Part shown: positions 11,806-63,505 of the stretch, piece after piece
Layout: the number at the start of each line of letters is the position of its first letter
Numbering within the stretch: the first letter of the stretch is position 1
Origin: Bilabrum cf. latius
Taxonomy: Eukaryota
Direction of reading: 5' to 3'
Length of the DNA: 64,000 nucleotides
Assembly: GCA_965178125.1 (NCBI GenBank)
Contig: OZ237751.1
Span: 992,001 to 1,056,000, forward strand
Made by a program: the position numbers and the translations under genes
Notes under the pieces: generated by a model
Told to the model about the DNA's origin: nothing
Databases searched by the model: none
What the model saw: only the letters and a program-made list of their open reading frames with translations

Positions 11806-12167
11806 ATGGATTCGGTCGGAAGCAGTTGTGGTGGGTCTGTGCTTGAGGGCCCTTTGGTGGCACCCAGCTCTCGGCTCTACTCCCTCGCGGGAAATGTCGG
11901 GCCGTCGCTGCAGCCACTGCGGCTCTCGCGCAGGCTACGCGTGGACCGTCTGAATTGATCGGACTCCATGCACCCTCATCCTTCGCTTGTTTTGCCTCTA
12001 GACGTGGTCTTGGCGTCACGTATCAATCATTTCTGTGCAAAACAACACGCAACAAATAGCCAAAATCGAGCAAGTGCTGGGCCACTTTGGAGCGATCCAT
12101 TACACGCATCACTGCATCATGGATCCTGCTACTGAGTATTCCCTTGTATTTTAATTACTCCATCCGA

Positions 12168-15100
12168 ATGAGCGTGCCCATTTCAGCATCTCAGGGCAAT
12201 ACCCAGGTGAAGCAACCCGCTGGAAACCCAGCACAGACAGGTTTGCCATTCCATCGAGCCATCTTCAAGGAAGCCTTCGAGTAGGACGGCCTGAATGTGT
12301 TAGCAAAAGGTATTGGTCTTGAATTCGTGGTCATGAAGCTGCTTCGAGTGTATTCTGGGGGTGCACTGCCAGTCCTGGTGCTCGGCATGAACGATTCGGC
12401 AGCTGAAGTGCGCCAGGCACTTCGATCGGACGGCCTCCCCGCCGCCGCTCTCCCTAGAGTAGCCAGCAATGAAACTCCAGCGGCAGAGCGCGTGAAGATG
12501 TACGGCCGAGGCGGGTGCATCCTCGTCACGTCACGGATCGCGGTGGTCGATCTCCTGATGCGCCGCATCCTGCCGCATCGCATCGCTGGATTCATCGTCA
12601 TGGACGCCCACAGGGTGCACGCATCGTCCTTGGATGCGTTTGCGCTGCACATCTACCGGCGCAACTACACGCGCAGCGGCTTTGTGAAGGCATTCACGGA
12701 CGACGCCGAGTCGGTGGTGGCGGGGTACGGCCGGCTGGAGCAGACGATGCGAGCCCTGCAGGTGCGGCGCCTGCGCCTGTGGCCGCGCTTCCACGCACTG
12801 GTGCGAAGGGATTTCGACGCGTGTTCCCCGGAGGTGGTGGAGCTGCTGCAGCCGCTGGGCCCCTAGGTGTCCACTGTGCAGTCCTCCGCGCTGGCCGCCA
12901 TGGGGGCCTGCCTGGAGGAGCTGAGGAGGGACGCGAGGGTCGAGGTGGACGATGCCACGCTGGAGAGAGGGATCCTGGAGAGCTTCGACAGGCAGCTGAG
13001 GAGGCAGCTAGACCCTGTGTGGAACAGGGTCAGGGATACGACCAAGCAGGTGCTGGAGGACATCAGGCAGCTCAGGAAGCTGCTCTTCTTCGCCCTCAGA
13101 TACGACCCCGCGACCCTGCTGACGTACCTCGACAGCATGCGCGCCGCCAGTGCCACCACACAGAAGGCACAGAGCCTGTGGCTGCACACGGACGCGGCAG
13201 ACAGCATGTACAAGGCTGCCAAGGAGCGGCTATACACGGTGGAGCGGGTGCAGGGGGGCGAGAGGGGGGCAAGGAGGGCCAGGGAACAAGGGGCCGTGGT
13301 GGTGACCAGCGGGGGCCCCTCCGCGGGCCAGATTGGCCACCCACCGCTGCAGCACTGGGCGCTCAGGGTGCGGCTGGAGGGGCCTCCCAAGTGGGTGCTG
13401 CTGCTCGAGGTGCTGCAGGAGGCAGTGCAGGACCACGCACAGGCGTTCGGCGGGGGAGGGGTGGAGGCGGGGAGCAGTGAAGGTAGCCCATCTCGCACTG
13501 CCCGTTAGGCTCCGTCTGCACCTGCCCTACCGGCCGGGTGGGGCATCCCTGGGATATGGCGAGAGCCCCTATCGGGCAGTGCTATCGTGGTGTTCGTGCG
13601 GGACGAGCAGACGGCGGCCCAGGTGGAGGAGGTGCTCGTGAGGGGGCCCCGAGCCGTGCTTGAGGACCAGCTGCTGGCCTTTTTGCTCCGGAATGCAGAG
13701 GCCACAAGGGACTTGAGGGCTCGGTTCAAGCAGTCGCAGGAGAGGAGGCACGCGGTTGACAAGGCAGGGGGCACTGCAGGGGGGCAGCCGCAGGGGAGTG
13801 GTACTGCGGCTGCAGGGCCCAAGCAGTCATCCGCTTCGTCTTCATCTGCGGGTGCCTCGTCCGCAGGCTTGTCCAGTGCATCGATTCAGCCCCCATCCAG
13901 CACTGGGGGCGCAGCTGCTGCGGCGGCATCTGCCAAGGCGGGGGCGGGCGCTGCACCGTCAGCAGCACCAGACCTCGATGACAGCTCCGTGTTCGTCCCC
14001 GCAGAGCAGAGGCTCCTGTGGAAACTGACTGCCCGCATGCTGAGAGACAGACGGGCGGCATTCGCCAGGGAACAAGAAGGATCCAGGGAACAAGCGGGTG
14101 GTGCCGGTGGATCGAGAGCAAGGGCAAGGGGCCTGGAGGGCGGTGCCAACAGATCGTCGAGGCAGGTATCGCGTGCATCTGGGGGCCGTGCATCTGAGGC
14201 TGCTTCGGGAGCGTCCAGTCTCGCGGGGTCTCCTTCTCGGCTGGAGGCAGCGGGCGAGGCGCAGCTTGGACAGCGGCTGCATCGTGCAGTGGAGGGGCTG
14301 GTGCAGGACTCGCTGGGCGAGGAGGCTGCCAGGAGGAGGGTGGCGCGGCGGAGGGCCCGCAGGAGGGGGGCAGGAGGAGGGGCCACTAGGCAGAGGGCAA
14401 GGAAGGGCGCCACCATGGCAGGCTCTAGCGATAGTGAGGATGACGAAGATGAGGATGAGGATGGAGGTGAATTGGGGAGCAGCACGGCCACATCAGATCA
14501 ACCCCCCGAGATGCCGCAGGAGGCTACGGGCAAGGAGAAGCAGGAAGGGGCCAAGATGGACCGCAATGAGGCTGGCTCACGCACCCCCAGTGCCAAGCGT
14601 AGAAGAGTGCAGCAGCAGCCAGAAGAAGAAGAGGCTGGTACGGGCCAAGAGGCAAGGGCTAAGGCCGCGACACCGGCGACGGACTCGCGGCCTATGGGGC
14701 CTTCCAGCCAGGGCCAGTCCCAGTCCCACGTGTCTCTGTCCAGCGGAGGTTCTCTATCCTCCTCCTCTTCATCGTCATCTTCGTCATCCTTCGACAGCGA
14801 GGTGGAGCTGGAGACAGGGGCCAGCGCATCAGGTGCCGGTGATGAAGCTGCAGGGCAGGCCGCGGACGACTCGATCCGTGGGCGGGCGCAGGCACTGTGG
14901 CGGGCCATGAAGCGGACCTGCCTGCCCCGCATGCACGTGGTGGTGTAGCCGCTGTCTTCATGCCAGGACAGGCACCAGCTGCTGCAGGACCTGCGGCCCG
15001 TGTTCATTGTGGCGTACGACCCCGAGCCCAGGCTCACCAGGGAGATAGAGGTATACAAGGCGCAGCACGCCAGGGAACAGCCGGTGCGGGCGTACTTCCT

Positions 15101-16373
15101 GCAGTACGACCGCAGCGCCGAGCAGCAGCGCTACCTGGCACAGCTAAAGGCGGAGAGAGAGGCGTTCGAGAGGCTCATTCAGAGCAAGGCCACGCTGTCC
15201 CTGCCCCAGTCCGTGAGCGCGCTGGATGAGGCCACCGTCGCGGGGCGGGCGGTGTTTCGGCGCGGGGTGGACGGCTGGGGCATCTCGGTGGAGGACGATT
15301 CGAGGCGCAGCGGGGGAGGGGGGATGGCTGGCGCGCTGGCCAGTCTGACCAGGGGGGGGCTGTCCGACGCTGGAGGGGCCATGTCGGGGGTCAAGGACCG
15401 TGGCAGGCGGCACATTGTGGTGGACATGCGCGAGTTCCGGTCCCGGCTGCCCTCTCTGCTGTACCAGTCCGGGTGCGAGGTGGTGCCTGTTACGCTGGAG
15501 GTGGGTGACTACGTGCTGTCGCCCGACCTGGTGGTGGAGAGGAAGAGCCTGTCGGATCTGTTCGGGTCCATGCGCAGCGGCAGGCTCTACCAGCAGGCTC
15601 AGGCCATGACTCGCCACTATGCCCGCGCAGCTCTCCTAATCGAGTTCGACGAGAAGAGAGCCTTCAGTCTGCGAGCCACCAACGAGGTATCCAGGGAGAT
15701 CCAGCAGCATTCCATCCTGTCGAGGCTGGTGCTGCTGACCCTGCACTTCCCCACGCTGAGCATACTGTGGGCGCGCTCCCCACACGCCTCGGTGGACCTC
15801 TTCCTCGCCCTCAAGCAGTCTGCAGAGGAGCCCAGCGCGGCCCACGCGGCGGGTGTCGGTATCGAGGAGGGTCAGGCGGCGCGGCAGGCGCAGGCCAGGG
15901 GGCGGAGGGCGGGCGCGATCGCTGCCGAGAGGCTGGCAGACTCTGTGGGCGGGGATGATGAAGGGGGTGGTGGTAGGAATGGGGCTGGGGCGGAATAGGG
16001 GGCGGCGTCATCGGGTGCTGGCGATGGGGCCTCCTCGGGCGCTGCAGCACCAGGCAGCGGAGTGGATGTAGCCGTTGAAGGAAGGGCTCCCGATCAGGGG
16101 GATGTGGAGGTCGAGGTGGAGCCCAACACGGCAGGGGTTGAGATCCTTCGCCAGCTGCCCGGCGTGACTCCAACCAACCTGCCCATGCTGCTGGACGCCG
16201 TTAGCTCGCTTCGTGAGCTGGCCGACATGAGCCTGGACCAGTTGCAGGGAGTCATTGCCAAGGCCAATGCCAAGCAGCTCTTCCATTTCCTGCACCACAC
16301 GGGCATGCGGAAGGCAGTCGCATCGCAGGGGAAGAGGGGGGCGGGCGGTGGCAGGGCAGCTGGAGGCAGGTGA
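12168..16373 (+). CDS. ERCC4: DNA repair endonuclease XPF (ERCC4/Rad1); TAG at 12282, 12864, 13506, 14946, 15996; TGA stop
   Basis: DGLNVLAKGIGL, VTSRIAVVDLL, GFVKAFTD, LWPRFH, PKWVLL, nuclease VVDMREFRSRLP..TLEVGDYVLSPDLVVERKSLSDL..GRLYQQ, and HhH LRQLPGV, all in one frame. Confidence 0.95.
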
Positions 16374-17922: not shown

Positions 17923-20900
17923 TCAGCCTACGGTGCAGCAGCCTGGCCCGCTCCTCGCCGAGGTCGTGCTCCTGCCCTCGCCCGCGGGCTGCTTCTCCTC
18001 CTGCTCGTCCTCGCTGTCCTCTGGCGCATCCATCACGCCCCGCGGCCTGTCCCCCTCAGCCGCGGGGCCCCGCCGAAAATCCCCACCGCCCGACGGCTCC
18101 TTGCCCGAGTCCGTCCTGTCACCCCCCCTGCCCCTGGCGCTCCGCTTGCCGCCATGGTGACCCACGCCCACGTCCCCGGGATCCCGCTCGCTCCGCTGCG
18201 ACATTGCCCCGCCCAGCGCCTGGCGCTGCGCCTCATCGCTAAAGTCCATCTGCTTGCGGCCGCCGGCGCCGCGACCGGTGCTGGGACCCCCGATCAGCGT
18301 ACCCCCCGGGGTCTTGGGGACGCTCCGGATCCCCCCCGCGTTGCTGAACCTCCTCGTCCTCTTGCTCGTGCTCTTGCGGCGGCCCCCCTCCTCGCCCGAG
18401 CTGGAGCGGTCCATCCTAGCCCCACCGCTGGCCGCGGCGAGGCGGCCTGCAGGCGTCCTGGGGGCGGCCATCACGTGCAGCACGCCCTGCCCGTCCGAGG
18501 TCTCCGCCCTTGAGTGCGCCCTCGAGTGCGCCCTAAAGTGCATGGAGGCCTGGGAGCGGCCGTCCGAGTCATCGTGTCCGTCCCTGCTCCCGTTGCTCGA
18601 GGAATGCCTGGAGAACACGGACATGCGCCGCGGGTGGCCCATAGCACCGGGGCCGCCCGTGGCATCGCTGTCGTCCCGATCGTGGTGCGACATGTAGTTC
18701 CCCGCCTCCAGCATCATGGCAGCTCCGGAGGCAGGGCCAGCCGCCTCGGACCGAGCCGAGCTGGAGGACAGCCCGCGCGGGAAGGCCCTGTACTGTTCCC
18801 CAGAGGAGCTATGCCCCCCCGCGCCGCCCCACTGGTTCCCGCCCCGCGCACCCGAACCGCCCACGGGCCGGCGCACGCCAAGGCTGTCCCCGCCCGACTG
18901 GTCCCTGTGACGAGTGCCCAGGCTGCCAGACCCGTTGCCGCTCCCCCCCCTCGGTGGCGGGGTGGGCCGTGCCCCTGGCCTGCCGGGCACGTTGGGCCCG
19001 AGCCCCCTCCGGCCGTCCACGGCCTCCCTGGCCGCAGCGATGGTCGCGGCCGCGGTGGTGCCCGGCCCGCCCATGCCGGCCCCAGCCCCCTGGTCGCTGC
19101 CCGCCTCGACCTGCCCCGGTACCCTGGGCCCGGTCCTGAAGCCCTCTCCCGGGCCCGTGGGGGACTGCCAGTGCTGCCTCTGCAGCCCGTCTGAGTCCCC
19201 CCCTATGGGGGTCACCCCCGGGAGCGACCCCGACCCATCGGGGGAAGGCATCGCGCGCACCGGGCCCACGATCCGACGGGCCCCGCTGCTCCTCCGCTGC
19301 CTGCCACCCTCCGTCCCCGGGGAGCTCATCGGGCTCATGAGGCCCCCGCCGGGGCCCGCGTCCGTCACCCTCAGCCTGGTGGGGTCAAATGCCCCCGAGG
19401 AGGGGGCAGCAGCAGCTGTCCCCTCCGGCTCCGGGGGTGCCAGCAGCCTCCTCGCCCTGGCAGGGGGGGAAGCCTTCCACATGGGGAGGTGGGCGTTCCT
19501 CGTGAGCCTCTCCACGAAGCCCTCGGGGGCGCTCATGTGCACGATCCGGAACTTCTGCTCCTCATCGTCAGACATGAAGAAGTACATGGCGGCCCCGCCC
19601 CTGTACTCCAGCTCCTCCATGCCCACCAGGGCCTCGGACCGAGTCCCCGCGTCCTCCGGCCTCTCCGCAATGCCCTGCACGTCCCTCGCCGTCATGCCCT
19701 GCATCAGAGCGTCCACGGACTGACGCCTGTTCCTCTTCTTGCGCACGGGTTGGGGGGCGTGCCTCGCGGCGTCCTCGTCCTCGCTGTCGTCGTCGTGCAT
19801 GTGTGCACCACCGCCGCCCATCTCCTCCCTGTCCGCGCGCTGGGCCAGCACGTGCATGCGATGCACCGCCTCCATCTGCCGGATACGTGGGTCGATGTGG
19901 TAGGTGGCGGCGAAGAGCCTCCTGTCGTCGTCCGTGATCTTCACGCCGGCCATCTTGTCCCTGAGATCACGCTCCTGCTTCCTCAGCTGAGCGGCGGCGT
20001 TGTGGCCCACGATCTTGTCGGGCACCGCGGTGAGATCCACCCTCATGCGGTACTTGGGGGGACAGGGCGGGGGCACGAGGCGGGCCTCCACCAGACCCCA
20101 GTCCATCCCGCGGAAGAACGGGTGCTGCTGGATCTGCTGGAAGCCATCGGGGCCCACGCCCAGGCGCCTGCTCAGGTGCGGGTCCAGCAGAGCGGAGATG
20201 AACTGGGCCGACTCGTCGTCGAAGTACTTGCGGTCGTACCGCACGCTCGCCTCGTACGTCAGCTCGTTGTCCCGCTCCAGGCCCCGGCCCGAGGAGAAGG
20301 GCGACCGTCCGGTCATGAGGGCGTACACGAGGCACCCGAAGGACCACCAGTCCGCGCTCACACCGTAGGGGATGCGGCCCCCCCTGCGGTCCCTCGCGAG
20401 CATCTCCCTGCACCAGTAGGCAGGCGTGCCTGCCCTGCCCTTGTACCACTTGAGGTGCAGCGCGGGCTTGGCCGGGCACAGGCAGTCGATGTGGAAGCGC
20501 ACCGCAGCGTCCTGCACCGGTCCCTCCGGCCCCGCGTCCACGGCCGCCCTCCCCTTCTGCACCGCCTTGATGAGCTCTACGTGCCTGCATCCCATGCAGC
20601 AGGCCGTGCCCTCGGGGTACTTCTCTGGGGCAGCGCACACCACGTCCGTCATGGGCGCGCTCTTGGAGCACGAGTGCAGGAACACGGCGAGACCGTAGTC
20701 CGTGATCTGGCAGTTCCCGCGCTCGTCCAGCAGCACGTTGGAGGCCTTGATGTCTCGGTGGATGATGCCGTTCTCGTGGCTATGGTACAGCCCCAGGGCG
20801 ATCTAAGCAGCGAAGAACCGAGCCGTCTCGCGGTTGAAGCGCTTCTTCTCCTGGGCCAGCAGCAGCCTCTCGAGGTCGCCCCCCCACGCGAGCCGCATGG

Positions 20901-23129
20901 CCATGTGCACCTCGTCGTCTGTCTCGAAGGCATAGTCGATCGAGCACACGAACGGGCTCCGGATCGTGGCCGCACACGCCAGCTCCCTGATGGCGCAGTG
21001 CACGCTGTTCTTGTACTTGAGCAGCCTCTTGCGCATGGACTTGACGGCGTAGAAGACCGCCGTGTCCTTCCGCTTCCACACGCGCACCCGGCCGTAGGAC
21101 CCGGAGCCCAGCACCCCCAGCACGTCGAAGTCCGAGATCGAGACCCGCTCCTTGGGCCCCGGCCGGTTGATGCTCGCCGCGAACGAGGCCGCCGAGGACT
21201 GCCTCGAGGGGCTCGCATCGGCGCTCTTGGCCAGGTCTCGCAGGAAGGCCGGGTAGAAGGCCTCCTGGATGCCTCGCAGCAGCAGGTCCCTCAGCTGCTC
21301 GAAGGGGCCCATGTCGTCCAGGCGGATGATCTTCTTCATCTCAAGGGCCTGCACGAACTCGGCGCTCAGGGCGGAGATGCCCTCATCAGAGAGCTCAGCG
21401 GGGGGGTGGCTGCCCCCACCAGAGGGGTCAGCCCCGGCCGCTACCCCCCCCATGTCTCCCCGCCTGGATGCCCTGGAGGGCGCCACCACCGCCCAGAACT
21501 CCCCCTGGTCGTCGTCCACCTCAGCGTCAGACCCGAACACCACGGGTCCGTCCCCCTTCTTGAGCACGCCGTTCCCCGCGGGGGCGTCCATGTCGGCCAG
21601 TGCCGCGACGGCCTGCCCGATGTCCCCTCCCACGCCCACGGAGCCCTGGGCCCCTGACGCGGTGGATGTGGCGCTGCTCCCCACCGGTGTTCCCTGGGCC
21701 TGGGTGGCGCCCTCGGGCTCGTCGTCGGGTGCCAGTTGTTCCCCCACGGCCATGAGCCGGGCGGCGAGGTCCCTCCCGACCAGCATGCGCATGGCCTGCA
21801 GCACCAGGCGGTCGGCTGCGCGCACGTTGGTCGCGAGTGCGTGTTCCCTGGAGGCCTCCATGGCGGCTTCCGTGGCCGATTCGGACTTGCCCCCGCCGAT
21901 GGCCCCGTCCCGCGTGGCCGTGGCTGCCTGCTGCGAGGAGGCGAGCGCAACGCCGACCGCCCTGGCGATGCGGCGGAGCGGGAAGGAACGGACGATGCCC
22001 ACGGCCCTGCGCGAGCAAAGACAAAAGATAAGGAAGAGGAGGAATCAAGGGCGCGGCTACGGGGTTGGAAATGAGCGCAATGACGGGCAACTTCGCAGCA
22101 GCCGGCACGCTGCGCTGAGCCGGCATTGCGACCGTACCTCCCAGCGACCACAACCGCAGCGGACGCACCCGAAAAGCACGGCCGGTCATGCAAACAGCTT
22201 CGTTTGTATCATTTGCAAGGGCTCTCAATTGAATACGATTGTTGGCATGCCATAGATGGAGCACGCACTGACAGAACACGACTCGGATGCTCCTGTGTTG
22301 GAATTGACGGTGATGCAACCCCCCCGGGGCGACAAGACGTGTAACGAGCGGCAGATCCATCATTCTCACCATCTAGACTTGTGCACGGGATGCGTGATCT
22401 ATCGAATCTGCGAGAGGCAAGACCAGAAGGCGAGCAGGTGTCGATCGGGTGCTTCGTCCTCAACAGCTACATGGCGCGGCCTAAGCCCTCGCAATCATGA
22501 GCGTGCATTGCCCTTTGGCAGCATCAAAGACGCATAAAATGCAATACATGAGCCCCTTGCGTGCCCGGCCTGCTCTGGAGCCACACCACAAGAGCTTGCA
22601 TGCTGCATACCGGCTAGAAGGAGCTTATTTGCAGGCATGAGCATGGCAGCAAGTGTTAGCAACGACAGGATCGTGAAACAACAACTTATATACACAGGTT
22701 TGACCATGTGGTGCCGCACAGGCAAGCCTACAAACGAGCAAACCAGGCCGCGCGAACCGGGCCACTCACTAGAAGCGTCAGGTCTTCGAGCAAAAATGGT
22801 ATCGCATCCAACTTCTTGTACGCCATCCACCTTCGAAAGATGTAATAATGAGGCACTTGCAATTTGGGAGCTCCAACAAACGCTGAACGCGCCAGGGACT
22901 CGAATATGGCAGGAGGCGCAGAGGGACGCCCTGCTCTACCGGGAGCGCCTTGCCCAGCCTGCCCATCTCGCTTCGGCGGAGGTACATAATCAGCATAGTT
23001 CAGGCTAAATTCCCAAACAACAGCTTCAAAGTCATTCTTTGATGGCTGCGAGATGCCATGGTCCCGATGCTCGGGGACGCCCTCTTGCGCATCCAGCCTT
23101 GGGTCGCCATGACCACTCATAGCTGCCAT
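17923..23129 (-). CDS. AGC-family, GRK-like Ser/Thr kinase with putative N-terminal RGS-like region; 5' exon structure uncertain; TAG at 20803; TGA stop
   Basis: FDVLGVLGSGSYGRV, YAVKSMRKRLLKYK, YAFETDDEV, GGDL, ARFFAA[Q]IALGL, IIHRDIKASNVLLD, DYG, KGRAGT, ADWWSFGC, HPFFRGMDW. An RGS-like helix (FEQLRDLLLRGIQEAFYPAF) precedes the kinase domain. Confidence 0.85.
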
Positions 23130-42682: not shown

Positions 42683-42884
42683 TCAATGGTGCGTGCTAAC
42701 TTGCCCTGTGTGTTGCTGCATGCTTGGATGGATGGTGTTAGCGTTGTATTTCATTAGTATTCGATGCATCTGTTGAACGAACACGCCCGACCCATTGATG
42801 GATCGAGTTCTTGCACTGGCCCTAGGTCTCTTCGCAGCACGCTACCATACCGGACTAGACCAGACTAGACCAGACTAGACCAGA

Positions 42885-43844
42885 TCACTGCCTGTCTCCC
42901 CCGCTCTTGTCCTCCAGCTACACCTCCTCGAAACCAGTGTCGCCAAAAGCATCGCTGTACGCTCCCTGCGCCTGTCCCAGGAGAGACCCCAGCGGGCCAG
43001 TCCTCGAGGCAGTTCCGAACCCCTTGAACGGCACGCTGGCGAACTCGCCCGCGCCTGCCAGCGCGCTGCTAGAGGCAGTAGAGCTGGGGCTACCTGACGA
43101 GACAGGGGCAGGGGCAGGGGCAGGGACAGGGGCGGGAGTTGGGGCTGCTGCCGGGGCCGGTGCCGGTGCCGGTGTCGGGGCAGGCGCCGGAGCCGGAGAA
43201 GGCGCAGGGGCCGGAGCAGGGGCGGGCGATGGGCTGGGGGCCTCAGCTGGGGCCCCACCGGCGTCGCCTGCGTCGGCTGCCGTGAAGTTAGCAAAGGCAG
43301 CGATGTCTTCCTCATCCTCCACGATGACCGCCACAGGCGCGCCCAAAGCAATGTCATCGTCGCCCTCAGGAACTAGCTTCTTTGCGAGGTATCCCTCGTC
43401 TTGCATCTCGAAATCAACGTTCGTCTTGTCTGTCTTGATAATAGCTAGCACATCCCCAGGGCCAACCTCTTCGCCTTCTTCTTTAGTCCATTCGGCTAAT
43501 GCGCCACTCTCCATCGTCTGCGAGCAAGCACAACAATAGTAGCACGAGTAGCTGGATGCGCTCACTTACGACACCGAATGATCGCACGTTGAGGCACCGA
43601 AGCGATGACTCACCGGTGATAGCGCTGGTAGCCTCAGAACCATGTGATCCGGGTACGATGCAAGGAAGCGGGCAAGCTTCACTGAATTGCTGCGAACCGT
43701 ATCGGGATGCGAAACAAGTCACACGGGTTTGACAGTCCTTAGCCGTGCGAATATGAGCTTCGGATGTTTGTTGGTCATGTTCAGTGCAGCAACGTACCTT
43801 CTAAAAATACCACAGACCCGCTACGCTCTCGCTAGGCGCATCAT
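42885..43844 (-). CDS. Mitochondrial single lipoyl-domain protein (pyruvate dehydrogenase E2-like N-terminus only), 3 exons; TAG at 43821 and 42918
   Basis: Transit-like MMRLARA[Q]RVCGIFR, then YPDHMVLRLPALSP|TMESGALAEW..EGEEV.PGDVLAIIKTDKTNVDFE..DEGYLAK, then a Pro/Ala linker; TGA at 42887-42885. Confidence 0.8.
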
Positions 43845-43967
43845 GGTGTCTAGAAATAGCGAAACTGCCCCACGACGCGCACACCAGATCTGCACTCGTC
43901 ACACATATCCGATTTCGAGAATCTGCGGCCGCCGGCCGAATCACTTGCTAGCTCGTACAGGTGCATC

Positions 43968-46181
43968 ATGGCCCGAATTACCGAAGAACTCATACGGAAG
44001 AAGTCAGAACACAATGATGGACTGCTTGGTGACCTGGAAGAGATCAGCTTGCACCAGTGCGAACTGGAGAGAATCGAGGTCATCGGCACCCTGTGTCGCA
44101 AGCTTCGCATCCTCTATTTGTAGAACAACATCATTCCGAAGCTGGAAAACTTGCATCATTTGAAAGAATTAAGGTATTTGAATATAGCCCTGAACAATAT
44201 CACCAGAATTGAGGGCCTTCAGTGAGATATTTGCCACGGATTCAGCGGTTGCCGTTGCGTTCGAACGCTGGTACCACAGCATCCATCGCGATGCCCCGAC
44301 CAAATATTTTGTGCCACCCGCAGAAATTGCGAGTTCTTGGAAAAGCTAGACATGACACTGAATTTCGTTGGAGTCGACGCGCTCGCTGACGGTGTAGAAC
44401 ACCTGTCGCAGCTTGGCCGCCTCGAAGACGTAACATTTCTCGGTAATCCATTCACAGACTGGGAACGACACCGCGACTACTTAATAGCTAGACTACCGCA
44501 GCTGCTTTCGATCGACGGAAAGGATGTGACGCGCTCGGAGAGGCTCTCGGCGCAGCAGCGGCTGAGCGACCTGGAGGCGGAGCTGGCCGAGCTGGCCGCT
44601 GCGGAGGCCGCTCGAAAGGAGGAGGAGGCCAGGAAGAAGAAGGAAGAGGCAGACGCCAAAGAGGCTGCTGCTTCTGCGGATAGCCCTTCGAGCGGCGCCG
44701 GGTGCGATGCCGGGGTAGGGGGTGCGGCAGGAGGCGCATCTGGCGAGGCTGAGCCGAGAGGCAAGTCGGCTGCTGTGGATGAGTACGAGGATGGGGACGT
44801 GGATGGAGAGGTCCCGAGTGGCGGCAAATAGAAGGCGGCAACATAGGAGGAGGAGGAGGCGTCTCCCTGGTGCCCCGAGGAGCGCGTGCAGATGTACCGC
44901 GAGATGGCCGAGCAGCGCCGGGAGGAGGAGGAGAGGGAGAGGGCGAGGCAGCCCAAGGAGAGGGACTACGGCGAGGAGCACAGGGCGCGGATGGATGCGC
45001 TGAAGGAGGAGGAAGAGGAAATGGCCCGGATGGGTGGCAAGGTGCGATGGAGGAACGAGGGCAAGCTGGGCTTCAAACTGGAGGAGGAGGATGGCAGGGG
45101 CAACATCGTCCTGCGGCTGGACCTGCCGCGGTTCCTGGATTCGAGCCTGGTAGACGTGGAGGCGCACCCGCACCACGTCACGGTGGTGGCCAAAGGGAAG
45201 CTCTTCCGCATGGCGTGGCCCGAGGAGGTCTCCGCCAGCGAGGGGCAGGCGGAGAGGCTCCCTTCCGGCGCCCTGGTGCTGACTGTGCCCAAGGCCAAGC
45301 GGCCGTCCAAGTCCACGAGGAAGGCGTACCTGAGGGCGGCGAGGGAGGCGCGGGAGGAGACGGCGAGGCGGGAGGAGGAGGAGAAGTGGTCGAAGGACGA
45401 GCGAGCGGGCAGGAGGAGGAGGCTGCGGCACGGGTCTGGTGGCAGCGGCAGCGGCAGCAGCGATGAGGAGGTGGGGGTGGGGGTGGGAGTGGGGGGTGGC
45501 AAGCTGGCGCTGGAGATTATGCGGGCCGCCGCCGGGGAACAGGAGCAGACAGGAGCAGGCACAGAAGAAGTAGCGGAGCAAGCTGAAGGCGAGGAAAAGA
45601 GCGGAGACGAGGAGCGCATGTTGGGAGCAGGCAACTCTAGCCGCAAGCATGAGCTGGCTGGCACCGTCAGCGTGGCTGGGATCGTCACAGCGCGGGACCG
45701 GAGGCGGATGGACCGGCGGGCAGGGCGGCTGCCAGACGAGGACGATGTGACGAGTGACGAGGATGAGGATGGAGACCGCGTGACCCCTCTGCAGGCGGCC
45801 CAGGAGGTGCTCAAGGTGCTGGACTCGAGGCGGCTGGACGGGGCCGAGACGCTGGACCTGGCCTCCTTGCGGCCGGGTGAGCTGGAGGCAAAGCTGGGGC
45901 GGGCTGGGGCGGGGGGAGGGAGGGCGGGAGATGCCGCGTCAGTGCTGTCGGGACTGGGGAGTGCGGCTGGGAGTCGGCTGGGTGGCAAGAACCGTGGGCG
46001 GAAGAAGACTGGGAAGTCAGCCAAGTCGGGCGCTGGCGGCCGGCCGGACGCCGCCACGATCGGGACAGCGTCTGTGGCGGGGTCTAGCAGGCGAGCGGGC
46101 AAGGGCGGTAAGAAGGGCAAGAAACGGGTTGACGGGCTTGTGTCTGGCTTGATGGGCCAGGTGAGAGCGATGCATGGGTGA
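43968..46181 (+). CDS. DNAAF11: Dynein axonemal assembly factor 11 (LRRC6/TilB); intron 44222-44323; TAG at 44121, 44829, 44844
   Basis: [30 protein letters not shown][Q][31 protein letters not shown], LRRcap [14 protein letters not shown] domain [13 protein letters not shown]. Confidence 0.95.
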
Positions 46182-46279
46182 GCACGCGAAGCTGCCAGTT
46201 TGCTCCGATCGATGGAACTGGGCAGAGCCGATTGCCCGCCTGCGCATCCGTACAGCAACCCCAGGAATTGATCAGTCAC

Positions 46280-47776
46280 ATGGACAAGGAGTCCCAATGC
46301 AGGTTCTTCAAAGGCATGCTATTTCGTTCATTGCCGCGCCAATATTTGGTGCTCGCCGCACAGTAGCCGCCGATCCTGTACTTTTGCTTGAGCTCGCTGC
46401 ATTTGCTAGGTGTTCCACCGTCGGATAAGGAAGCTGCTATCCTGCGTAAAAAGATACGGGCTGGATGGGTTGTTGATCAGTTCGGTAGGGGTGGCTTCGC
46501 AGGCCAGTCCAGCGATACCGGCCGTGCTTCAGTCGACGCTGGGGATCCGACGTCGACGCCGCACCTCGCATGCACGTATGCGTCCCTTGCCGCGCTCGCG
46601 ATGATAGGAGAGTCCCGCGACGATTGGATATCTTGGCGAGACCCTGTGGTCCAACTGATCGCCAGCATGCAAGAGAGCACGGGCGGGTTCTCCGTTTCTA
46701 GCGTGGAGCGCGGAGAAGATGCCCGCTTCATGTACAGCGCGTGCATGGTTTCTGAGCTAATTGGCGATTGGAGTGGGATCAACGTGTCCGCGGCTCTCCG
46801 CTGGCTAGGCCATGCCCAGTCTATGGAGGGAGGCTACTCCCTGTTGGGCGGCGGTCCCGTCGGCGGGGAGGCGCACGGGGGCAGCACCTATTGCGCCGTG
46901 GCCGCCAGCCGACTGCTGCAGCTGCAGCTGGCACGACAAGGTGCACGATGTTCCCCTGCCATGGCGGTGGGCGCACATCCAGCGGACAGCAGGGGCGGGT
47001 GCCCCGCGGTGGTGCGGCGCGTGGGGCGGGCAGTGGGCAGGTGCCTCGCGCGCAGGTTGGCGCACAGACGGAAGGAGCAGCCCCAGGAGGGACCCGGAGC
47101 CGGTTCACCAGCAGTTCCGTAGCCGGATTGCATCGCATCAGATGCTCGCACAGCACCCACTGCCACTGGCAGGAGCACCTGCTCGGATCGCACCCGTCGG
47201 CTGTGCCTGTGGCTGGGCCAGCGGCAGGGAGACGGGGGCGGGTTCACGGGCCGTCCCCACAAGCAGGAAGACACATGCTACGGGTTCTGGGTGGGCGCCT
47301 CCATGCGACTGCTGGGGCTGGGGGACTGGGTGCGGGGAGAAGATCTCCGGGGGTTTGTGGAGGGCACTCTGTTCAAGCAGGGGGCGGGGGCGGGGGAGGC
47401 GCATGCCTTCGCCAAGTGCAAGGGGCACCCCCCGGATCCGCTGCACGCGCACTACTCGCTGGTGGGGTTGGTGGAGCTGAGCCGGGGCCAGCGGGGGCCG
47501 GGGGAGAGGGTCTTCGATCCGCTGTCGGGGCTCCCGCAGCGGGCAGCGGACCGACTAGGGATTGGGAGAATGGAAGGTGGAGGTGGAAACGGCATTGGCA
47601 GCACGAGCTCTGGTGCCCCGGGGAAAGAGGGGCGCAGCGATGCCCGAGGCAATGGCGATGGCGATGGCGATGGCGATGGCGATGGCGATGGCGGGCCTGC
47701 CACTGCCAGCCAGGACGGCGGGGGCCAGGAGGCGTCCAAGCCAGTGCTTGAAGAGGTCGAGGGCGGACCGACGTGA
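46280..47776 (+). CDS. PGGT1B: Geranylgeranyltransferase type I beta subunit-like prenyltransferase; TAG at 46364 and 47120
   Basis: HLACTYASLAAL, EDARFMYSAC, QSMEGG, EAHGGSTYCAVA, GFTGRPHKQEDTCYGFWVGA, PDPLHAHYSL. Confidence 0.85.
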
Positions 47777-47943
47777 TGCCGACATTGAGGACAAATAATG
47801 AATCGATCACACTGCGACCTTGGACATCGAATGGTGGCAATATCGGCCGAGAGAAAGCACAGGTCAAGATGTGACGAGTGCGATGCCGGGCCGCGCCAGC
47901 TGCAACCTCCGGTACTGCAACCGAGCTCATCTGGCTCGCTAGA

Positions 47944-49055: not shown

Positions 49056-49371
49056 GCGGCTCTCGGCGGCAGAATGGGGTTGAGGTTTATTGGCGGAGAG
49101 TGACGTGCGATGGTATGCAAAGGAACATGATAGTTGTAGTTGCACTCTTAGTAAAGTCACTGGGCTTTTCCCAGGCGTCCAGTGGCGGGTCGTGCCGGCT
49201 GGGCTGCATGATGTGGTTCGGGCGGTTCCCGGGCGGCCGGTTCGTTCTTGCTTCTCACCATCAATCGCGGGTCCAAGGCACCCTCAGAACACACCATGAA
49301 TGCAGCGCAGAGCCTGGTAGCAAGCTGATATCGAAAACGATTCCCTCTGTCCACACCTTCCCAGTGCAGCG

Positions 49372-51258: not shown

Positions 51259-51381
51259 CTTGCCGCTCGCGTGCTTCAATCGGATCCGTGCTAGCTAGGC
51301 TAGACCTACAAAACCTTTTGTATATTGATTGCAGATGTTCCTGTGCATGAATCGAAACAACCCCAGCTGCAGTTGCTAGGC

Positions 51382-52801: not shown

Positions 52802-52988
52802 AGCGATTGAAAAATAGCCTGCTGCAAGCGCAGCCGCGAGTGCCGCCACTGGCAGCTCCGGATTGACGCACCCAACAACTCATCGCGGCTCTCGCGCGAC
52901 ATCCTGCCACGCCAGTCGAGTTAGCGACATGAATTGCAGCGGGCTATGCAGCCGCCCCAAAAAAAGCGCTCCCGATCTCCCTCCCCAC

Positions 52989-55037
52989 TCACGCGCTCAC
53001 CTCAACGCACAGGCCCTCGTCCCCCGCGCCGGCCCACACCTCGATCCTGGACGCCACGCCCTCCCCGCTGGGAGCGTCGTGCGCCCACCAGGAGGCCTCC
53101 GCACTGCGGGGCACGGGCAGCCTCTCCGCGACCTTGTACGCCGCAGGCAGCGGCTCCCCCCCGGGCGTGCTGGCCCCCGGCGCGTCGTACCGCGTGAATC
53201 GAGACAGGGGCAGCGCAGCAGCGAGCTCGTGCCCTTGCCCCGCCTCGGCGCTGGCAGCCCACTCGTCATACGCGGGGAACGGGGCGCGCGCGATGGGTCC
53301 GCGTGCTTCTGCTTCGACGGCTACCCGGCCGCTGCCGCACGTCCCACTCGTCACACTGACGCTCACCCGGTCTGCCCTCGCGGCCATCCCGTCGAGCAGC
53401 AGCCGCACCTCTCGCCCCACGGGCCCCACCTCGAGCTGCAGGCCCAGGCCGGGTCCGCCGTCCTTGGCTGGGCCTGCCGAGTACCACGCCACTGCGTCCG
53501 GCCCCATGTGTTCCCTGAGATCTACGGACACTTTCTCGGGCGCTTGTTCCCTGGAGAGCACGTCCCAGTCGGGGTCCCACCCATGGGGGGAGTGCACGGC
53601 CAGGGTGAGCGCCCCCTTGGCGGGGGAGGCCCCCCCCCTGCCGGTGTATCGGGTGGACACGTGCAGGGGCACGATGTCTCCCTGCCGGCCGAAGACCGGG
53701 ATGACGGTGAGGGGGGCTTCCACCCGCACGGTTGCGTTGGAGGGGTAGGTCTTGTTCCGGTCGAACCAGTCGAACCAGCCCTTGCCCGTCGGTGTGGCCG
53801 GCAGGTGCACCGTGGCGCGGGTCACGTTAGCCTCCGACACCGGGTGCACGAAGATGGAGGGGCCCAAGGAGTAGTCGTACGAGGAGAAGTTGTTATACTG
53901 GATCAGGTCCTGCTCGTCCTGGGGGCGGGGCTCGGAGGGAAGCACCAGCGAGCTGTTGGTCTCGTAGGCGCGCGCGCCGTGGGACAGCAAGTACGGCTGC
54001 AGCTCCATATGCGCCGCCACGAGTGCCCTGTAGGCGTCCACGATGACCGTGCTGCCGGGGCCATCGAAAGCCCAGGGCCTGTGCTCCTTGTCTCCCCCGT
54101 TCTCCATCAGTGGCAGAAACGCTCCCATCTGCGCCCAGCGGAGAAACAGCTCGGCGGTGCGGCCCTGTGTCCCGTGCCCCGACCTGTACCCGCCAATGTC
54201 GCTGCCGAATCCCGTGTAGTTGTTCCACCCCGAGTGCAGGAGGTTCCGCAGCGCGTCCTGCATGCCCTCGAAGGTCGGGTCCTGGTCGCCCACCCAGCCA
54301 GAGAACATCACGTCCCGCGGGGAGAAGTCCAAGTACACCTGGATCTCGGCCCCGATCACGTTGTAGCTGTCCACCGGGCGGGACATGACCAGGCAGTGCG
54401 GGCCGTTCTGTTGCCTGGTGTATTGAAAGAAGTGGCGGTAGTAGTCGGTCGCGTACTCGCGATATGAGACGGGCCCCGCGTGCCCCTGAGGGTCCAAGTA
54501 CTCGATGATGAACGGATCCGTCCCATCCACCTTCCAGCCGTCGATATCAAGCTTGAGCACATTGTCAAGAGCGTCCTGCCACCAATCGACCGCCTTGTCG
54601 TACGTGTAGTCCAGAAGCAACCCGTCCCCGTGCCACCAGTGCAGGGTTGACGTCTCGTTCAGGGCATTTCGAATGTTGTAGTCGTTTGAGGCCATCTCCT
54701 AGTAGTTGCTTGAGTCCGTATCCACCATGGACGTGGCCCAGAGGATAACCATCGTCCCGTTCGAGTGCTGTCCTGCCACTAGCGCGCCCAAGTCTGGGAA
54801 TTTGGACGTGTCCGGTACAAAGTCATTGATTCCTTTCGACCACGTGCTATCAATGTCGATGGCACCCACGGGAATCGTGTGGTCCCTGAAGCTTTGAGCG
54901 AACTCTTCAACGGCCGGCTACGTTGAGCGGTCTGCTGAGAGCCAGACCCAATGCTCGTGCGCCCATGGGGCGTACGGAGTCGTGCCACATACAAGACTAG
55001 CACTAAGGGCAAGGATTGTCGCGGCCTCCCCCCTCAT
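52989..55037 (-). CDS. Secreted GH31 glycoside hydrolase; TAG at 54918 and 54699
   Basis: Signal peptide, IPVGAIDIDSTW, SKFPD, IDGWKVDGTD (nucleophile), WVGDQ, GSDIGGY, ELFLRWAQMGAF, PW.F, IPVF.R.G. Confidence 0.9.
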
Positions 55038-55195
55038 GCCGTGCAGAAGATTCTGCCTAAAATGGGCCTTGCATCAAAATCTTCATCTTCATGGATTGCC
55101 AAGTGCATTCCGGCCAAATGGGTAATTACTCTCTGTTTTGGTTCTTTCATCCCAGCAAGGTGCTACCAGAAGTGCACTCCTGCTGACGGGCTCCA

Positions 55196-57993: not shown

Positions 57994-60900
57994 ATGTCGC
58001 GATCAGACGCAGAGGCTTTATTTGCCTCCTATGGCATTGACCCCAAAGCTCCGTACCCTTGCACGGTTTTGGATGGTGAGCGTCCTATCGGCCCTGGCCA
58101 ACCGAACTCGATCATATACCCGCTCGTAGCGATAGCGTTGCTCAATGCAGAACGCATAGTTTGCGATCCCACGCCCAAACGTCAGTTATGTGTGCGCCAG
58201 TGGGCGTCTGCAGCGCACTAACGATCTGTGACCTCAGCCAGAATCCGCCGCCCAACCCACCGGTTGTGGGTTTGGCTGCAAGACGGCAGTTTTCGCACAG
58301 AAGCAGCACTGCATGCCGGTCATGCCCAACGAATGCACGTTGCATGCCAGATTCATGTGATTCGCTGCATGCCTTTCCACCGCAGAGCTGTTTCACGACG
58401 TGGTGGCCATCGATGTGAACGCTCTCGTGGAGCAGCACCCCGACAACCTGCTGTCCAAGGCGCTCACCAACCACCTGGCCATCCCACGGTGGAAGCGGTT
58501 CACCTCAGAGATCAAGGGGATATTCAGGTCCATTCGAAGGCACGTCAAGGGCGGATCCAACGCGCAGTACATCCCGGTGCTGGCCGAGGCGGATCCCAGC
58601 AAGTTCGCGGTGTCCGTGTGCACGGTGGACGGGCAAATGTACTCGGTGGGCGACTACAACTGGGGATTCTCTATACAGAGCTGCGTGAAGCCGCTGCTGT
58701 ACGCGATGGCCCTTCAGGAAAACGGGCTCAAGCGGGTGCACCGGCACGTGGGGCACGAGGCCAGCGGGCTCGCCTTCAACGAGGTCAGCCTGAACAAGGA
58801 CGAGCTACCCTACAACCCCATGGTCAACTCGGGAGCCATCGCCACAGCCTCCACTGTCAGGCCGCAGGAGAGCTCCGCGGCTAGGTTCCGCGCCTTCAAG
58901 AAGTTCGTGGAGGGGCTGGCGGGGCCAATTAAGGTGGGCTTCTCGCAGCCCACGTACCTGTGCGAGAGCGAGACTGCCTGGAGGAACAACGCGCTGGTGT
59001 ACTTCATGATGAAGGCGGGCGTGTTCTCGAAGGACGTGGACCCGCTGCAGAGCCTTGACTTCTACCTGCAGGCCTGCTCCATCGAGGTCACGGCCAGGGC
59101 GGCGGCATGCGTGGCCGCCACTCTGGCCACGGGCGGGATCATGCCGCTGACGGGGGAGCGCCAGATCGAGTCGTGGGTCGCGCACACGGTGATCCAGCAG
59201 ATCTTCGTGGGGGGCATGTACGACGCCTCCGGGGAGTGGAGCGTGCAGGTGGGCCTGCCAGCCAAGAGCGGGGTGGCCGGTCTCATCTACGTGATCATAC
59301 CCAACCGGGCGGGCATCGCGATCGTGTCCCCGCCTTTAGACGACCACGGCAACTCGTTTCGGGGAGTGGAGTTCTGCAGGCGGCTGCTGCGGTCCTACCC
59401 GCTGGGCATCTTCGACCAGATCATCTCTGCCTCCATCGACGAGCGGGGGCACTCGAACGTGCTGGCGGATGAGCCGAGGGGAGGATCCGCGCATGGGAGC
59501 GCCAGCAGCTCGAGTGGCCCGGGCACCGTAGTGGCAGAGTCCGTGCTGGATCCGGAGCAGTACCATGGGCAGGCACAGGCCGCCAGCACGGCTGATCCTG
59601 GGGCGGACCACGACCGGGGAACGTGGGGCGCGGGGGGGTCTGTGGCCACGGATCAGGCCGAGAGCAAGCAGCAGGGGGGCATCAACGAGGACGGTCGCGG
59701 GGGGCAGAGGAAGGGGCAGAGGCCGCGCCGGGGATCCCTGACGCGGGAAGCGGTGGGCGGGCAGAGCTTCATCCGAAAAAAGCACGGGCGGAGCGACGGT
59801 GAGTTCGACCAGGCCTCTCCCCGTCCTGACGCGACCGACGCGTCTAGCAAGGGCGGGGCTGGAGCTACTGGCCCTTCGTTCGACTTCGGGGCCCAGATGG
59901 CGGAGAGCGAGGCAAGGGGGCTGCTGCACGAGGTGCGGCACGTGAGTCTGCGGCTGGTGCGGCTGCTCCGGAGGGTGCGGCTGTACTCGAGGTTCTACCA
60001 GTGGGCGCAAAGGGAGGGGCTCCGGCGATCGACTAGCCACGAGGAGCTGGGCAGCGAAGGAGGGGTGGACATGCGGTACGCCGCGGACGAGATGGAGTCT
60101 GGGTTTTCTCCAGAGGCGAAGGCGGTGCGGCCCCAGGGCTCTCCCCCCGCTGGGGCGGTGAGCGCGGAGGACGACATCGCCGGCTTGACCCGGGATGCAC
60201 CCGCCGGTACCCGCGGTGGTTTCTCTATCTGCGACTTGCAGATGCCCAGGCAGGCCCTGGAGGAAATGCTGCTGAAGCGGGGCATCGAGCTGGACCCGGA
60301 GCGGCAGCCGTACGCGTGCGGGCTCCTGGACCGTGCCAGGGCAGCGGGAGCGGCGCGCATGCGTGCAGAGGCGGCGAGGGCGGGTCTGGGTGACGCGGGC
60401 ACTGGACCCGTGTGCGAGGAGACGGGTGGGCCTTGGAGCGCGGGACCGGGCAAGCAGGTGTCGTTCTCGGCCGAGTCCCTGTCGGCGGGAGTCGCGCCGC
60501 CCGACTCGAGCGGGGTGGTGGAATCGCCCACCAAGCAGGCCCCCGCGGGACTCATGCGAGTGGGCGACCTGAGCAGTCCGCTGGGCCTGTCCCGGGGCCA
60601 GTCCGTGCTGCCCACGGACGACTTGGATGAGGCCGAGGAAGACAGCTGGGTGGTGGACGTGCGGGACCTCTTCCTCGCCGGTGTGCAGAGGAACCCGATC
60701 CTGTTCGCGGCGGTGGACGGGCTGGCCATCCCCGATTTCTAGCTGCTGCAGCGCGACCTAGATGAGATCATGGGCACGGTGCTGCGGAGCGCCGAGGCCT
60801 AGCAGGGGGAGGTGTACTCGAAGGACGACATCGAGGAGCTCTCTCAGGCGGACCCGGATGCGTGGGCCGTGTCGGTGTGCACTGTGGACGGGCAGACATA

Positions 60901-63505
60901 CCACATGGGCCAGGCCGACGTGGATGTGCCGCTCATGCAGGCCATCAAACCGTTCCTGTACGCTCTCGCGCTCAAGGACCGGGGTCAGCACGAGGTCAAC
61001 CGTTGGATCGGCACGGAGCCCACGGCACTAGACCCCGAAGGATTCACGTTCATGAAGCTAGGGGGCGGCGGGCACGGGGGCGGGGGAGGGGCCTCCAGCT
61101 CTGGGGGGTCCGACGAAGAGGAAATCGCGGGCGAGAGCAGCGGGCCGGTCCCGTCCGCATCCCCTGTGGGAGCCGGGCCCGTGGTGCCCGTGTCTTCATC
61201 GGGCCTGCTCGAGACTAGCGGCAAGCCCGGCATGCTCGACGGGGAGGACGAGGACATGATGCCGTGCCAGGACCCGTCCCAGGGGCCCCAGGTGCGGCCG
61301 TACAACCCGTTCACGGACACAGGCGCGCTGGCGGTGAGCGCGCTGATCGCCATATCGCGGCCCTTCAAGGACAGCGGGTCTAGGTTCAGCCACATCATGG
61401 GCTTCATGCGGCAGCTGGCGGGCTAGCGGCACGTGGGGTTCAGCAACAGCGTGTTCCTTGCCCTCAAGGAGAAGCGGCTCATGGTGCGCGCCCTGTCGCA
61501 CTACATGCAGGGCATGGACCTGTACCCTCCCGGGTGCGAGCCCAACGACATCGCCTCTCTCCTGTGCCAGATGTTCTCCGTGGAGGTAAACATGGAGACG
61601 CTCGCCGTGATGGCCGCCACCCTCGCGCGAGTCGGGGTGTGCCCCGTGACCAGAGAAAAGGTGCTGCCCACTCACGTCGTGCGGCGCATGTTCTCCATCA
61701 TGTACACGAGCGGGCTAAACGAGCACAGCGGCAACTGGAGCTTCAACGTGGGCATACCTGCCAGCAGCGGCGCCAGCGGCGTGATGCTGGTGATCATCCC
61801 GAACCGCATGGGCATCGCCATCCACTCCCCCCGGCTGGCCAGGGGCGGCATCCCGTCCATCGCCACCCCTTTCTGCCAGGCCCTCAACCAGAGGTACCGC
61901 GGGAACATCTTCGACTCGCTCGTGCACCAGGACCAGGCCCCCTCCAAGGCGGCAGAGGAGGGCACGCACCGGGTGGAGGCCCCCATGAGCACCAAGCAGG
62001 GGCTGCTGTTCTTCGAGCTGTGCGTGGCGGCGCACATGAACGACGACAAGAGGGTGAGGGAGCTCCTGGAGGACGGTGCAGATGTCACGCTGTCGGACTA
62101 CGACAGCCGCACGGCCCTTCACATCGCGGCCAGCGACGGGCACCTGAGGGTGCTCAACACTCTGATCGAGGCGGGCGGGGACGTGCTGGCCAAGGACCGC
62201 TGGGGGAGGACCCCGCTGGAGGACGCGGGGCTCACGGGTCACGCGCACTGCCTGTCTGCCATGCAGGAAGCACTCAGGAGGCAGGGGTACAGGGAGGTGC
62301 CCGGGGCTGGAGGCGGGCACGGGCACGGGCACGGGCACGGGCAGGCGGGGCCTGGGCCGGCGTCCACTGCCAGCGAGCATGGGAGCACGGACGGGCGGAG
62401 TGGTGGGCGGGGGCCGCCCACTCTGTTGTCTGAGGCATTCGGGGGCAGTCGCAACGGCTCCGAGTCGGACATCGCTCGGCTGGGGCTCGCCCTTGGGGGC
62501 GACGGCGGGGACACGACCCCCAAGCCCTCGGCTGTGGGGGGGCCGGGTGCGAACGATGCGGCTGGCTGGGGCTCGGGGGTCTCGGCGGATAGCGGACATC
62601 CGTCCAGCAGCCACCTTCACGGGCTTGGGCTGGACGTGCCCAGGCGTCCTTCGGGCGCGATGCTGGCAAGCCTCATGGGAGTGTCTGCCGGGCACAGGCG
62701 TGGGCCATCGGGGGCGGGGGCACACAGGGGGCCAATGGCCCGGTCAGCGCTGCACTCGAGCTCCAGCCCGCTGCTGGCGGCGCAAGGGGTCAACCAGGGT
62801 GCATCGCACGCAGGTGCGTCCCACATCATGGGTCGCCAGGGCAGCACCGGTTCGGACTTCCAGCTGCCGCCCACCGCGCGTGACGCTGACGCTGGCACCC
62901 ACGACACTGACGTGTCCTCCACGGGCCGGTCTCATCAGGACGAGGGCGTGGGGGAGCGGGGCAGCCTGGTGCTGTCTCCGTCCTCCAGAGGCCGGTCCAG
63001 TGCGGAGGGGGACGGGCCATTGAGTGCAGCTGCCATGGGCACTGTGGGGGCCATGGAAGGGGCCGGGGCCAGGTCACTGACCGGGGACACCGTGGCGTTC
63101 GTGTCTCCTGGGGGCGACGTGGTGCACGTGCCTGAGGTGATGCTGGGTGTGGGGGCGCACCAGCATCGGCACGGGCACCTGCAGCACACCCAGCATCAGC
63201 ATCAGGTGCAAGGGCAAGGGCAAGGGACCTCTCGGCGCGCTGGGGGCGGGGCATCGGCGGCTCCCCACAGAGGGGGGGGGGAAGGGCGCACCCCGCCCAT
63301 GGCACCGGCAGGGCGGAAACCATCCCCGCTGCATCCTCAGGACAGCCGCAACGGGGGACAAGGTGGGGCTAGCAACGGAAATGGCAGTGCAGGGGCCGGC
63401 CAGGGAGCGGGACGCTCTGCTCCCAGACCTGTAAGGGTGGGAGAGGCGCTGGCCAGGGCCCTGCAGCCGTACAGAGACCGAGCAGAGGCAGGTGAAGAGT
63501 CGTGA
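57994..63505 (+). CDS. GLS: Glutaminase with two tandem glutaminase domains plus ankyrin repeats; true start probably further upstream; TAG at 60740, 60800, 61424
   Basis: Domain 1: AQYIPVLA, SVCTVDGQ, SIQSCVKP, PYNPMVNSGAI, GMYDASGEW, PAKSGVAG, SPPLD..GNS.RG. Domain 2 is a degenerate copy. Ankyrin DYDSRTALHIAASDGH, DRWGRTPL. Confidence 0.9.

Follow-up and report, generated by a model that had tools for sequence, protein, structure and literature searches.

The DNAAF11/LRRC6/TilB gene examined here raises the question of how a protein can be translated in full from a frame that carries TAG at a conserved position. The window, a 64-kb stretch of DNA with a GC content of 53-73%, lies on contig C17 of a near chromosome-scale genome assembly (G000; 48.6 Mb in 111 contigs). 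Exon 1 of the gene (43968..44221, + strand) begins with an ATG at 43968, encodes part of the leucine-rich repeat (LRR) region, and is supported by both homologues and spliced contigs. It is followed by a 102-nt GT..AG intron (44222..44323, +) and by exon 2 (44324..46181, +), which encodes the remaining LRR region, the CS domain, and a long low-complexity tail, and which ends with TGA at 46179-46181. The resulting two-exon model comprises 703 codons, three of which are TAG: codon 52 (44121..44123, +), codon 254 (44829..44831, +), and codon 259 (44844..44846, +), the latter two lying before the CS domain in a linker that is not conserved. The initial annotation placed the first of these correctly but missed the other two.

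A homologue search returned 82 proteins, most of which either bear the name TilB, LRRC6 or DNAAF11 in their annotation or have a CS_DNAAF11_C domain, with 42-82% identity to exon 1. The closest named homologues are from stramenopiles, mainly oomycetes, and not from animals. When the two-exon model was aligned with all 82 proteins, codon 52, which sits between ILYL and NNII, fell in a column occupied by Q in 81 sequences and H in one, flanked by columns that are 95-100% conserved without a gap. The alignment bears out the proposals of the initial annotation that the TAG at 44121 is codon 52 in a conserved Gln column and that exon 1 is colinear and gap-free around it; across the orthologues this column is neither variable nor non-Gln. 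The LRR and CS domains were also proposed to be intact downstream, and both LRR_9 and CS_DNAAF11_C are matched in the exon 2 frame. The gene shares the N-terminal LRRs and CS_DNAAF11_C domain of the family but differs in that the model adds ~300 low-complexity residues past the CS domain and in that three Gln codons are TAG. The low-complexity tail (45300-46181) is mostly missing in the homologues and is a model, as the spliced contigs extend only to 45345-45431. A phylogenetic tree of DNAAF11 was poorly resolved, and no entry named DNAAF11 was found in the PDB. DNAAF11 has a head-to-head neighbour at 42888-43800, ~200 bp away, which encodes a lipoyl domain and an Ala-Pro linker.

Four of eight listed public runs were compared with positions 42000-54000 of the window. 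Contigs from runs X1 and X2, which belong to one study, and X3, which belongs to another, join 44221 to 44324, skipping exactly the intron, and show no differing letters at all three TAGs, so that UAG is retained in the spliced contigs of all three runs. The contig from run X6 has no such joint; it is unspliced and identical to the genome at DNAAF11. No run that contains this stretch is recorded as RNA, and X1-X3 were taken to be RNA as a guess for which the splice joints argue. A pseudogene, an assembly error, an RNA-editing site or gene-specific readthrough could each in principle account for the TAG, and although contigs drop rare variants and a rare edited form could escape them, the likelihood of any of these is negligible: nothing but the stop codon itself speaks for them, whereas identical letters occur in four runs, three of them spliced, and many of the contigs hold TAGs in dyneins, GTPases or eRF1, hundreds in all.

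Four other frames in the window contain TAG and end in TGA. These are an XPF/ERCC4-type frame of 1508 codons stop to stop with six TAGs (11847..16373, +), a protein kinase frame with one TAG within the kinase domain (17923..22044, -), a GH31 hydrolase frame with two TAGs within the Pfam match (52989..55073, -; partly covered by contigs, with no differences), and a glutaminase-ankyrin frame of 1714 codons with three TAGs (58361..63505, +). In the last of these, the glutaminase domain occurs in three matched stretches, apparently by duplication, alongside the ankyrin repeats.

Beyond the window, codon statistics were drawn from a 244 kb sample and from gene-family loci. When the dynein AAA_6 domain of Pfam was searched for without assuming any code, 28 matches were obtained, and within them there are 20 TAG, no TAA, and no TGA codons. 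Stretches of 10 kb around each of 19 dynein genes on 13 contigs were then read with TAG alone as sense, whereupon 18 of the 19 show one open frame of 3,208-3,333 codons, and the 19th is split into frames of 2,387 and 871 codons. Reading TAA as sense makes the dynein frames no longer. Reading TGA as sense lengthens many frames in the window, but it was rejected on the lack of TGA within the dynein matches and on the occurrence of TGA after terminal Cys motifs. The dynein frames total 62,825 codons, including 272 TAG, 393 CAA, and 2,291 CAG, with the absence of TAA and TGA from them being partly by construction; one dynein stretch holds 48 TAGs. In the 244 kb sample, TAG is present in 30 of 38 coding-like frames. 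TAG makes up 1-7% of Gln codons at GC3 > 0.8 and 18-25% at GC3 0.54-0.63, as expected for an ordinary synonymous codon. Among the dynein genes (L067-L085), GC3 spans 0.54 to 0.92 and the TAG share runs inversely from 1% to 25%. TAG acts as a third, minor Gln codon, and what explains DNAAF11 is that UAG, and only UAG, was reassigned throughout the genome; neither readthrough nor editing particular to this gene is the cause. The initial annotation was supported in reading this TAG as Gln, but it confined the reading to one codon of one gene, whereas the cause is genome-wide. Since UAG is read as Gln across the genome, DNAAF11 would be an intact, spliced gene translated whole as the 703-residue model. 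An annotation under the standard code would cut short most genes of the lineage, going by the 30 of 38 sampled frames.

To assign the residue inserted at UAG, the codons of the 19 dynein genes were compared with conserved columns of 120 reference dyneins under a local-identity filter, a method that assigns 60 of the 61 sense codons their standard meaning. In columns that are ≥70% conserved, Q faces TAG in 21/37 cases (57%), CAG in 231/375 (62%), and CAA in 32/48 (67%); at a 90% threshold, it faces TAG in 13/19 cases, CAG in 79%, and CAA in 83%. Over 210 TAG columns, the log-odds sum to -129 for Q and -441 for E, the next best residue. Without the local-identity filter, 89 conserved TAG columns contain Q 38 times, E 11, R seven, and Y two; the majority of the dyneins were aligned to references that are paralogues, and the columns are blurred by this. 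In small GTPases (65 matches in all), TAG occupies the switch-II Gln position, equivalent to Ras Q61, in 8 of the 30 loci examined. In eRF1, the position of Q44 is TAG, and 110 of 112 references have Q there (112 of 120 matches were retained, eight having been left out by length).

A dynein locus from a metagenome (L229) represents a sister species, with 86% amino acid identity but 51% third-position identity to this genome. It contains 13 TAG, no TAA, and no TGA codons in 1,180 codons, and its TAGs face CAG ten times, GAG twice, and GAC once in this genome. The UAG = Gln code is common to at least one sister species. The possibility that UAG encodes another residue, such as Glu, or Tyr in view of the likeness of the tRNA stems to tRNA-Tyr described below, or a mixture, is very remote. 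E is the second commonest residue at TAG columns and the acceptor and anticodon stems of the cognate tRNA are nearest to those of tRNA-Tyr, but E likewise ranks second for CAA and CAG, Y faces TAG in only 2 of 89 conserved columns, Q beats E by ~310 bits, and the sister species exchanges TAG with CAG ten times and with GAG twice. Glu and Tyr were rejected on the column counts.

UAA and UGA are retained as terminators. Thirty small GTPase loci were considered, from which two 5' exons and eight loci without a terminal Cys motif were removed; in all of the 20 that remain, the terminal Cys motif is followed by TGA (16) or TAA (four) and never by TAG. The 17 histone loci examined and H4 all end in TGA or TAA, with TAA ending H4 and H2A, and no TAG ends any of them. 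The eRF1 gene ends in TAA, and the 38 frames of the 244 kb sample end in TGA (34) or TAA (four), although some of these frame ends may be introns. UAG was not seen as a terminator in this small sample of ~80 gene ends, with which rare UAG termination would also be compatible. The UAR = Gln code (NCBI table 6) was rejected on the lack of in-frame TAA, the use of TAA to end genes, and the failure to find a tRNA(UUA).

A dual role for UAG, as Gln internally and as a stop at some gene ends, or a partial suppression through competition between tRNA(CUA) and eRF1, is improbable, though less so than the alternatives above. Such a role would fit the retention of the core motifs of eRF1, the finding of a single tRNA(CUA) gene, and the lack of TAG inside core histone matches. 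However, TAG ends none of the 20 GTPases with Cys motifs and no histone, and its rate shows neither excess nor depletion toward gene ends (2.2-5.3 per 1000 codons near frame ends versus 3.6 inside; a comparison of low power). Leaky reading of UAG would also be costly, given the 48 TAGs in one dynein stretch and the two in eRF1. Taken from sequence, a nuclear code in which UAG encodes Gln and UAA and UGA terminate, with the meaning of NCBI table 15, is very probable.

A code of this kind calls for a tRNA that decodes UAG. No tRNA genes were found in the 64-kb window. In the genome, an Rfam search in which 63 of 780 candidates were scored revealed a tRNA with a CUA anticodon at G000:C23:907607-907679 (69.8 bits), the minimum-energy fold of which is a cloverleaf. 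Of seven matches to a pattern for CUA and UUA anticodons in the genome, this gene alone proved to be a tRNA bearing either of them, and the search yielded no tRNA(UUA). The host contig, C23, itself uses the UAG = Gln code, and both tRNA-Gln(UUG) and tRNA-Gln(CUG) are also present in the genome. The tRNA(CUA) would pair with UAG but not with UAA, and the cytosolic GlnRS would charge it. A GAU anticodon is carried by two distinct nuclear tRNA-Ile genes (G000:C32:91173-91245, L011; C4:952092-952164, L046); eukaryotic tRNA-Ile usually has an AAU anticodon.

In a comparison set that lacks His, Leu, and Glu(UUC) genes, the nearest relative of tRNA(CUA) is tRNA-Tyr(GUA), with 39 of 56 fixed positions shared as opposed to 34 for Gln(CUG). 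The 5' strands of the acceptor and anticodon stems match tRNA-Tyr at 10/12 positions, a value reached by none of 314 control pairs, although these two stems were picked post hoc, after being seen; across all four stems the likeness is 13/20, which is reached by 18 of 314 control pairs and is unremarkable. Among 27 tRNA types, only tRNA(CUA) and tRNA-Tyr start with C1-G72, and the D-stem of tRNA(CUA) is identical to that of Gln(UUG). C1-G72 and A73 are described as eukaryotic Tyr determinants (PMC9976931, available portion). The tRNA(CUA) differs from tRNA-Tyr at G2-C71, C34, A37, and G73, all of which belong to the E. coli Gln set as given in the available portion of PMC1483225, but it lacks U1-A72, G3-C70, G36, and U38 of that set. 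A TATA-like motif upstream of both tRNA(CUA) and tRNA-Tyr was dismissed as a sign of kinship, as tRNA-Gln(CUG) is preceded by it too and other tRNA genes by motifs like it. The stems are more like those of tRNA-Tyr than those of tRNA-Gln, a likeness that is no more than suggestive, and the chances that tRNA(CUA) is of Tyr origin may be put close to evenly balanced. Under a Tyr origin, a G34C change would first have made tRNA-Tyr(GUA) an amber suppressor, and Gln identity would then have followed through the loss of A73 and the gain of G73, G2-C71, and A37.

One GlnRS was found in the genome, and it exhibits no distinctive change. An adaptation of GlnRS through Gly at a position of Arg in the human enzyme was rejected, as Gly is also present in 71 of 150 relatives, and the only three departures from conserved columns are all found in other relatives too.

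One eRF1 and one pelota were found in the genome. The N-domain of eRF1 (G000:C35:455550-457423; L001:1068-2941) departs from the references at 10 of 84 conserved columns, whereas 107 of 112 references depart at 0-4. The changes (human numbering) include G29A, N30D, S60V in TASNIKS, L69Q, E107Q, N129S, and K130H, while the cores of the GTS, NIKS, and YxCxxxF motifs are intact. This divergent eRF1 may have lost or weakened its recognition of UAG while keeping that of UAA and UGA. Q69 is also present in plant eRF1 (Zostera) and in PDB 8ip8, and L69Q is therefore not diagnostic and cannot be the whole cause. In yeast eRF1, L69A raises readthrough, slightly more at UAG, N30A has no effect, and E107A lowers readthrough (PMC4381064, available portion); L69 is also altered in a rhizarian with UAG = Leu (PMC5304391, available portion). 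The eRF1 gene contains two TAGs, and Q69 is itself encoded by TAG. Both TAGs lie in the stop-recognition domain and must be read as Gln there, and any UAG activity left in eRF1 could thereby feed back negatively.

In a phylogenetic tree of one dynein heavy chain, built from this genome and 39 of 120 matches (40 rows), the organism groups with Cantina marsupialis and proteins from metagenomes (FastTree support 1.0), whereas oomycetes and ochrophytes branch elsewhere; the tree covers a single gene, with Cantina as the one named bigyran. The position points to this flagellate being a heterotrophic bigyran stramenopile, and membership of Bicosoecida is plausible, with no named bicosoecid in the trees. 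A ciliate contaminant was excluded by the dynein tree and by the use of UAA as a stop. The mitochondrial contig C111 has in-frame UGA (= Trp) with a tRNA(UCA), which matches the bicosoecid Cafileria as described in the available portion of PMC6723347 but is not diagnostic. C111 (L055, L154, L155, L056, L156) is 38,401 bp with 24% GC, has its long gene-like frames all on one strand, and contains only 10 tRNA genes by ARAGORN (F, Y, R, W, K, Q, H, E, M, C), a number small enough to suggest that many tRNAs are imported into the mitochondrion. The main 18S is 1,700 nt in length and forms an array on C12. A second, different 18S of 1,802 nt (G000:C95:6099-7900, L034), on a contig of 17.9 kb, probably belongs to another eukaryote that was co-assembled.

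The codes of relatives were sampled in 80 metagenome dynein loci. Beyond L229, the next closest loci (58-63% identity) contain no TAG, and the nearest dynein proteins are recorded as uninterrupted chains of 2,654-4,314 amino acids; on these grounds, the change of UAG looks confined to a small clade. Elsewhere among the metagenome loci, TAA and TAG are both often opposite Glu in L250, L214, and L203 (a UAR = Glu pattern), and many other loci exhibit a UAR = Gln pattern.

The results can be joined in a single reading that we put forward tentatively and hold to be possible rather than probable. This would be the first nuclear stop codon reassignment in Stramenopiles, with a tRNA(CUA) derived from tRNA-Tyr(GUA) and not from tRNA-Gln, and with an eRF1 that has turned specific to UAA and UGA, like bacterial RF2, while keeping GTS, and the own mRNA of which requires two UAGs to be read as Gln. 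No nuclear stop reassignment in a stramenopile was found in the open literature searched; subscription papers, database notes, and supplements lie outside this search, and an earlier report is possible. The list of UAG-only codes in the available portion of PMC11687900 (2024) comprises Iotanema, Protocruzia tuzeti, Hartmannula, and Trochilia (Gln), a rhizarian and uncultured ciliates (Leu), and Scotinosphaera (Ser), and names no stramenopile.

UAG uncoupled from UAA is rare in nuclear codes, the cases in the literature, as far as its available portions extend, being ciliates, one fornicate, one rhizarian, and one green alga, to which an independent origin in another major lineage is now added. 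A GC-rich genome with UGA as the main stop does not fit the picture of AT pressure drawn for ciliates and Blastocrithidia. The assembly also yields the tRNA, eRF1, and GlnRS genes, which are missing from the available portions of the literature for other cases of UAG = Gln, and with these in hand it becomes testable how eRF1 ignores UAG yet keeps UAA, and where such tRNAs originate. A natural amber-blind eRF1, if true, would be of interest for genetic code expansion.

The available portions of PMC5304391 and PMC9161772 describe the fornicate Iotanema spirale as likewise having UAG alone as Gln and UAA as a stop, with close relatives that use the standard code. Iotanema belongs to a different supergroup, however, and its eRF1 carries T32G in GTS, whereas GTS is intact here and the changes are at G29, N30, S60, L69, N129, and K130; its tRNA(CUA) is given there as predicted and not found. 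The phyllopharyngean ciliates Hartmannula sinica and Trochilia petrani, as well as Protocruzia tuzeti, also have UAG = Gln and UAA as a stop, as here, and no sign of a dual meaning of UAG is reported for H. sinica and T. petrani in the available portion of PMC11687900. In the reassigned phyllopharyngeans, UAA ends 87-98% of genes, whereas UGA dominates in this non-ciliate (16/20; 34/38) at a GC content of 53-73%, and the suppressor tRNA, described in the same portion as undetected in H. sinica and T. petrani, has its gene recovered here. The rhizarian exLh (PMC5304391, available portion) resembles this genome in that UAG was reassigned alone and Leu69 of eRF1 is substituted, but it has UAG = Leu and L69A as opposed to Gln and L69Q, the latter also present in plant eRF1. 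The UAR = Gln code of many ciliates, ulvophytes, Hexamita, and Amoeboaphelidium (NCBI table 6; PMC11687900, available portion) has UAG = Gln in common with the present code, but here UAA is a stop that occurs nowhere in frame and ends eRF1, H4, H2A, and four GTPases, and the search gave no tRNA(UUA). This genome differs from the known UAG-only codes in its lineage, in being GC-rich with UGA as its main stop, in keeping GTS intact, and in having yielded a tRNA whose stems are Tyr-like.
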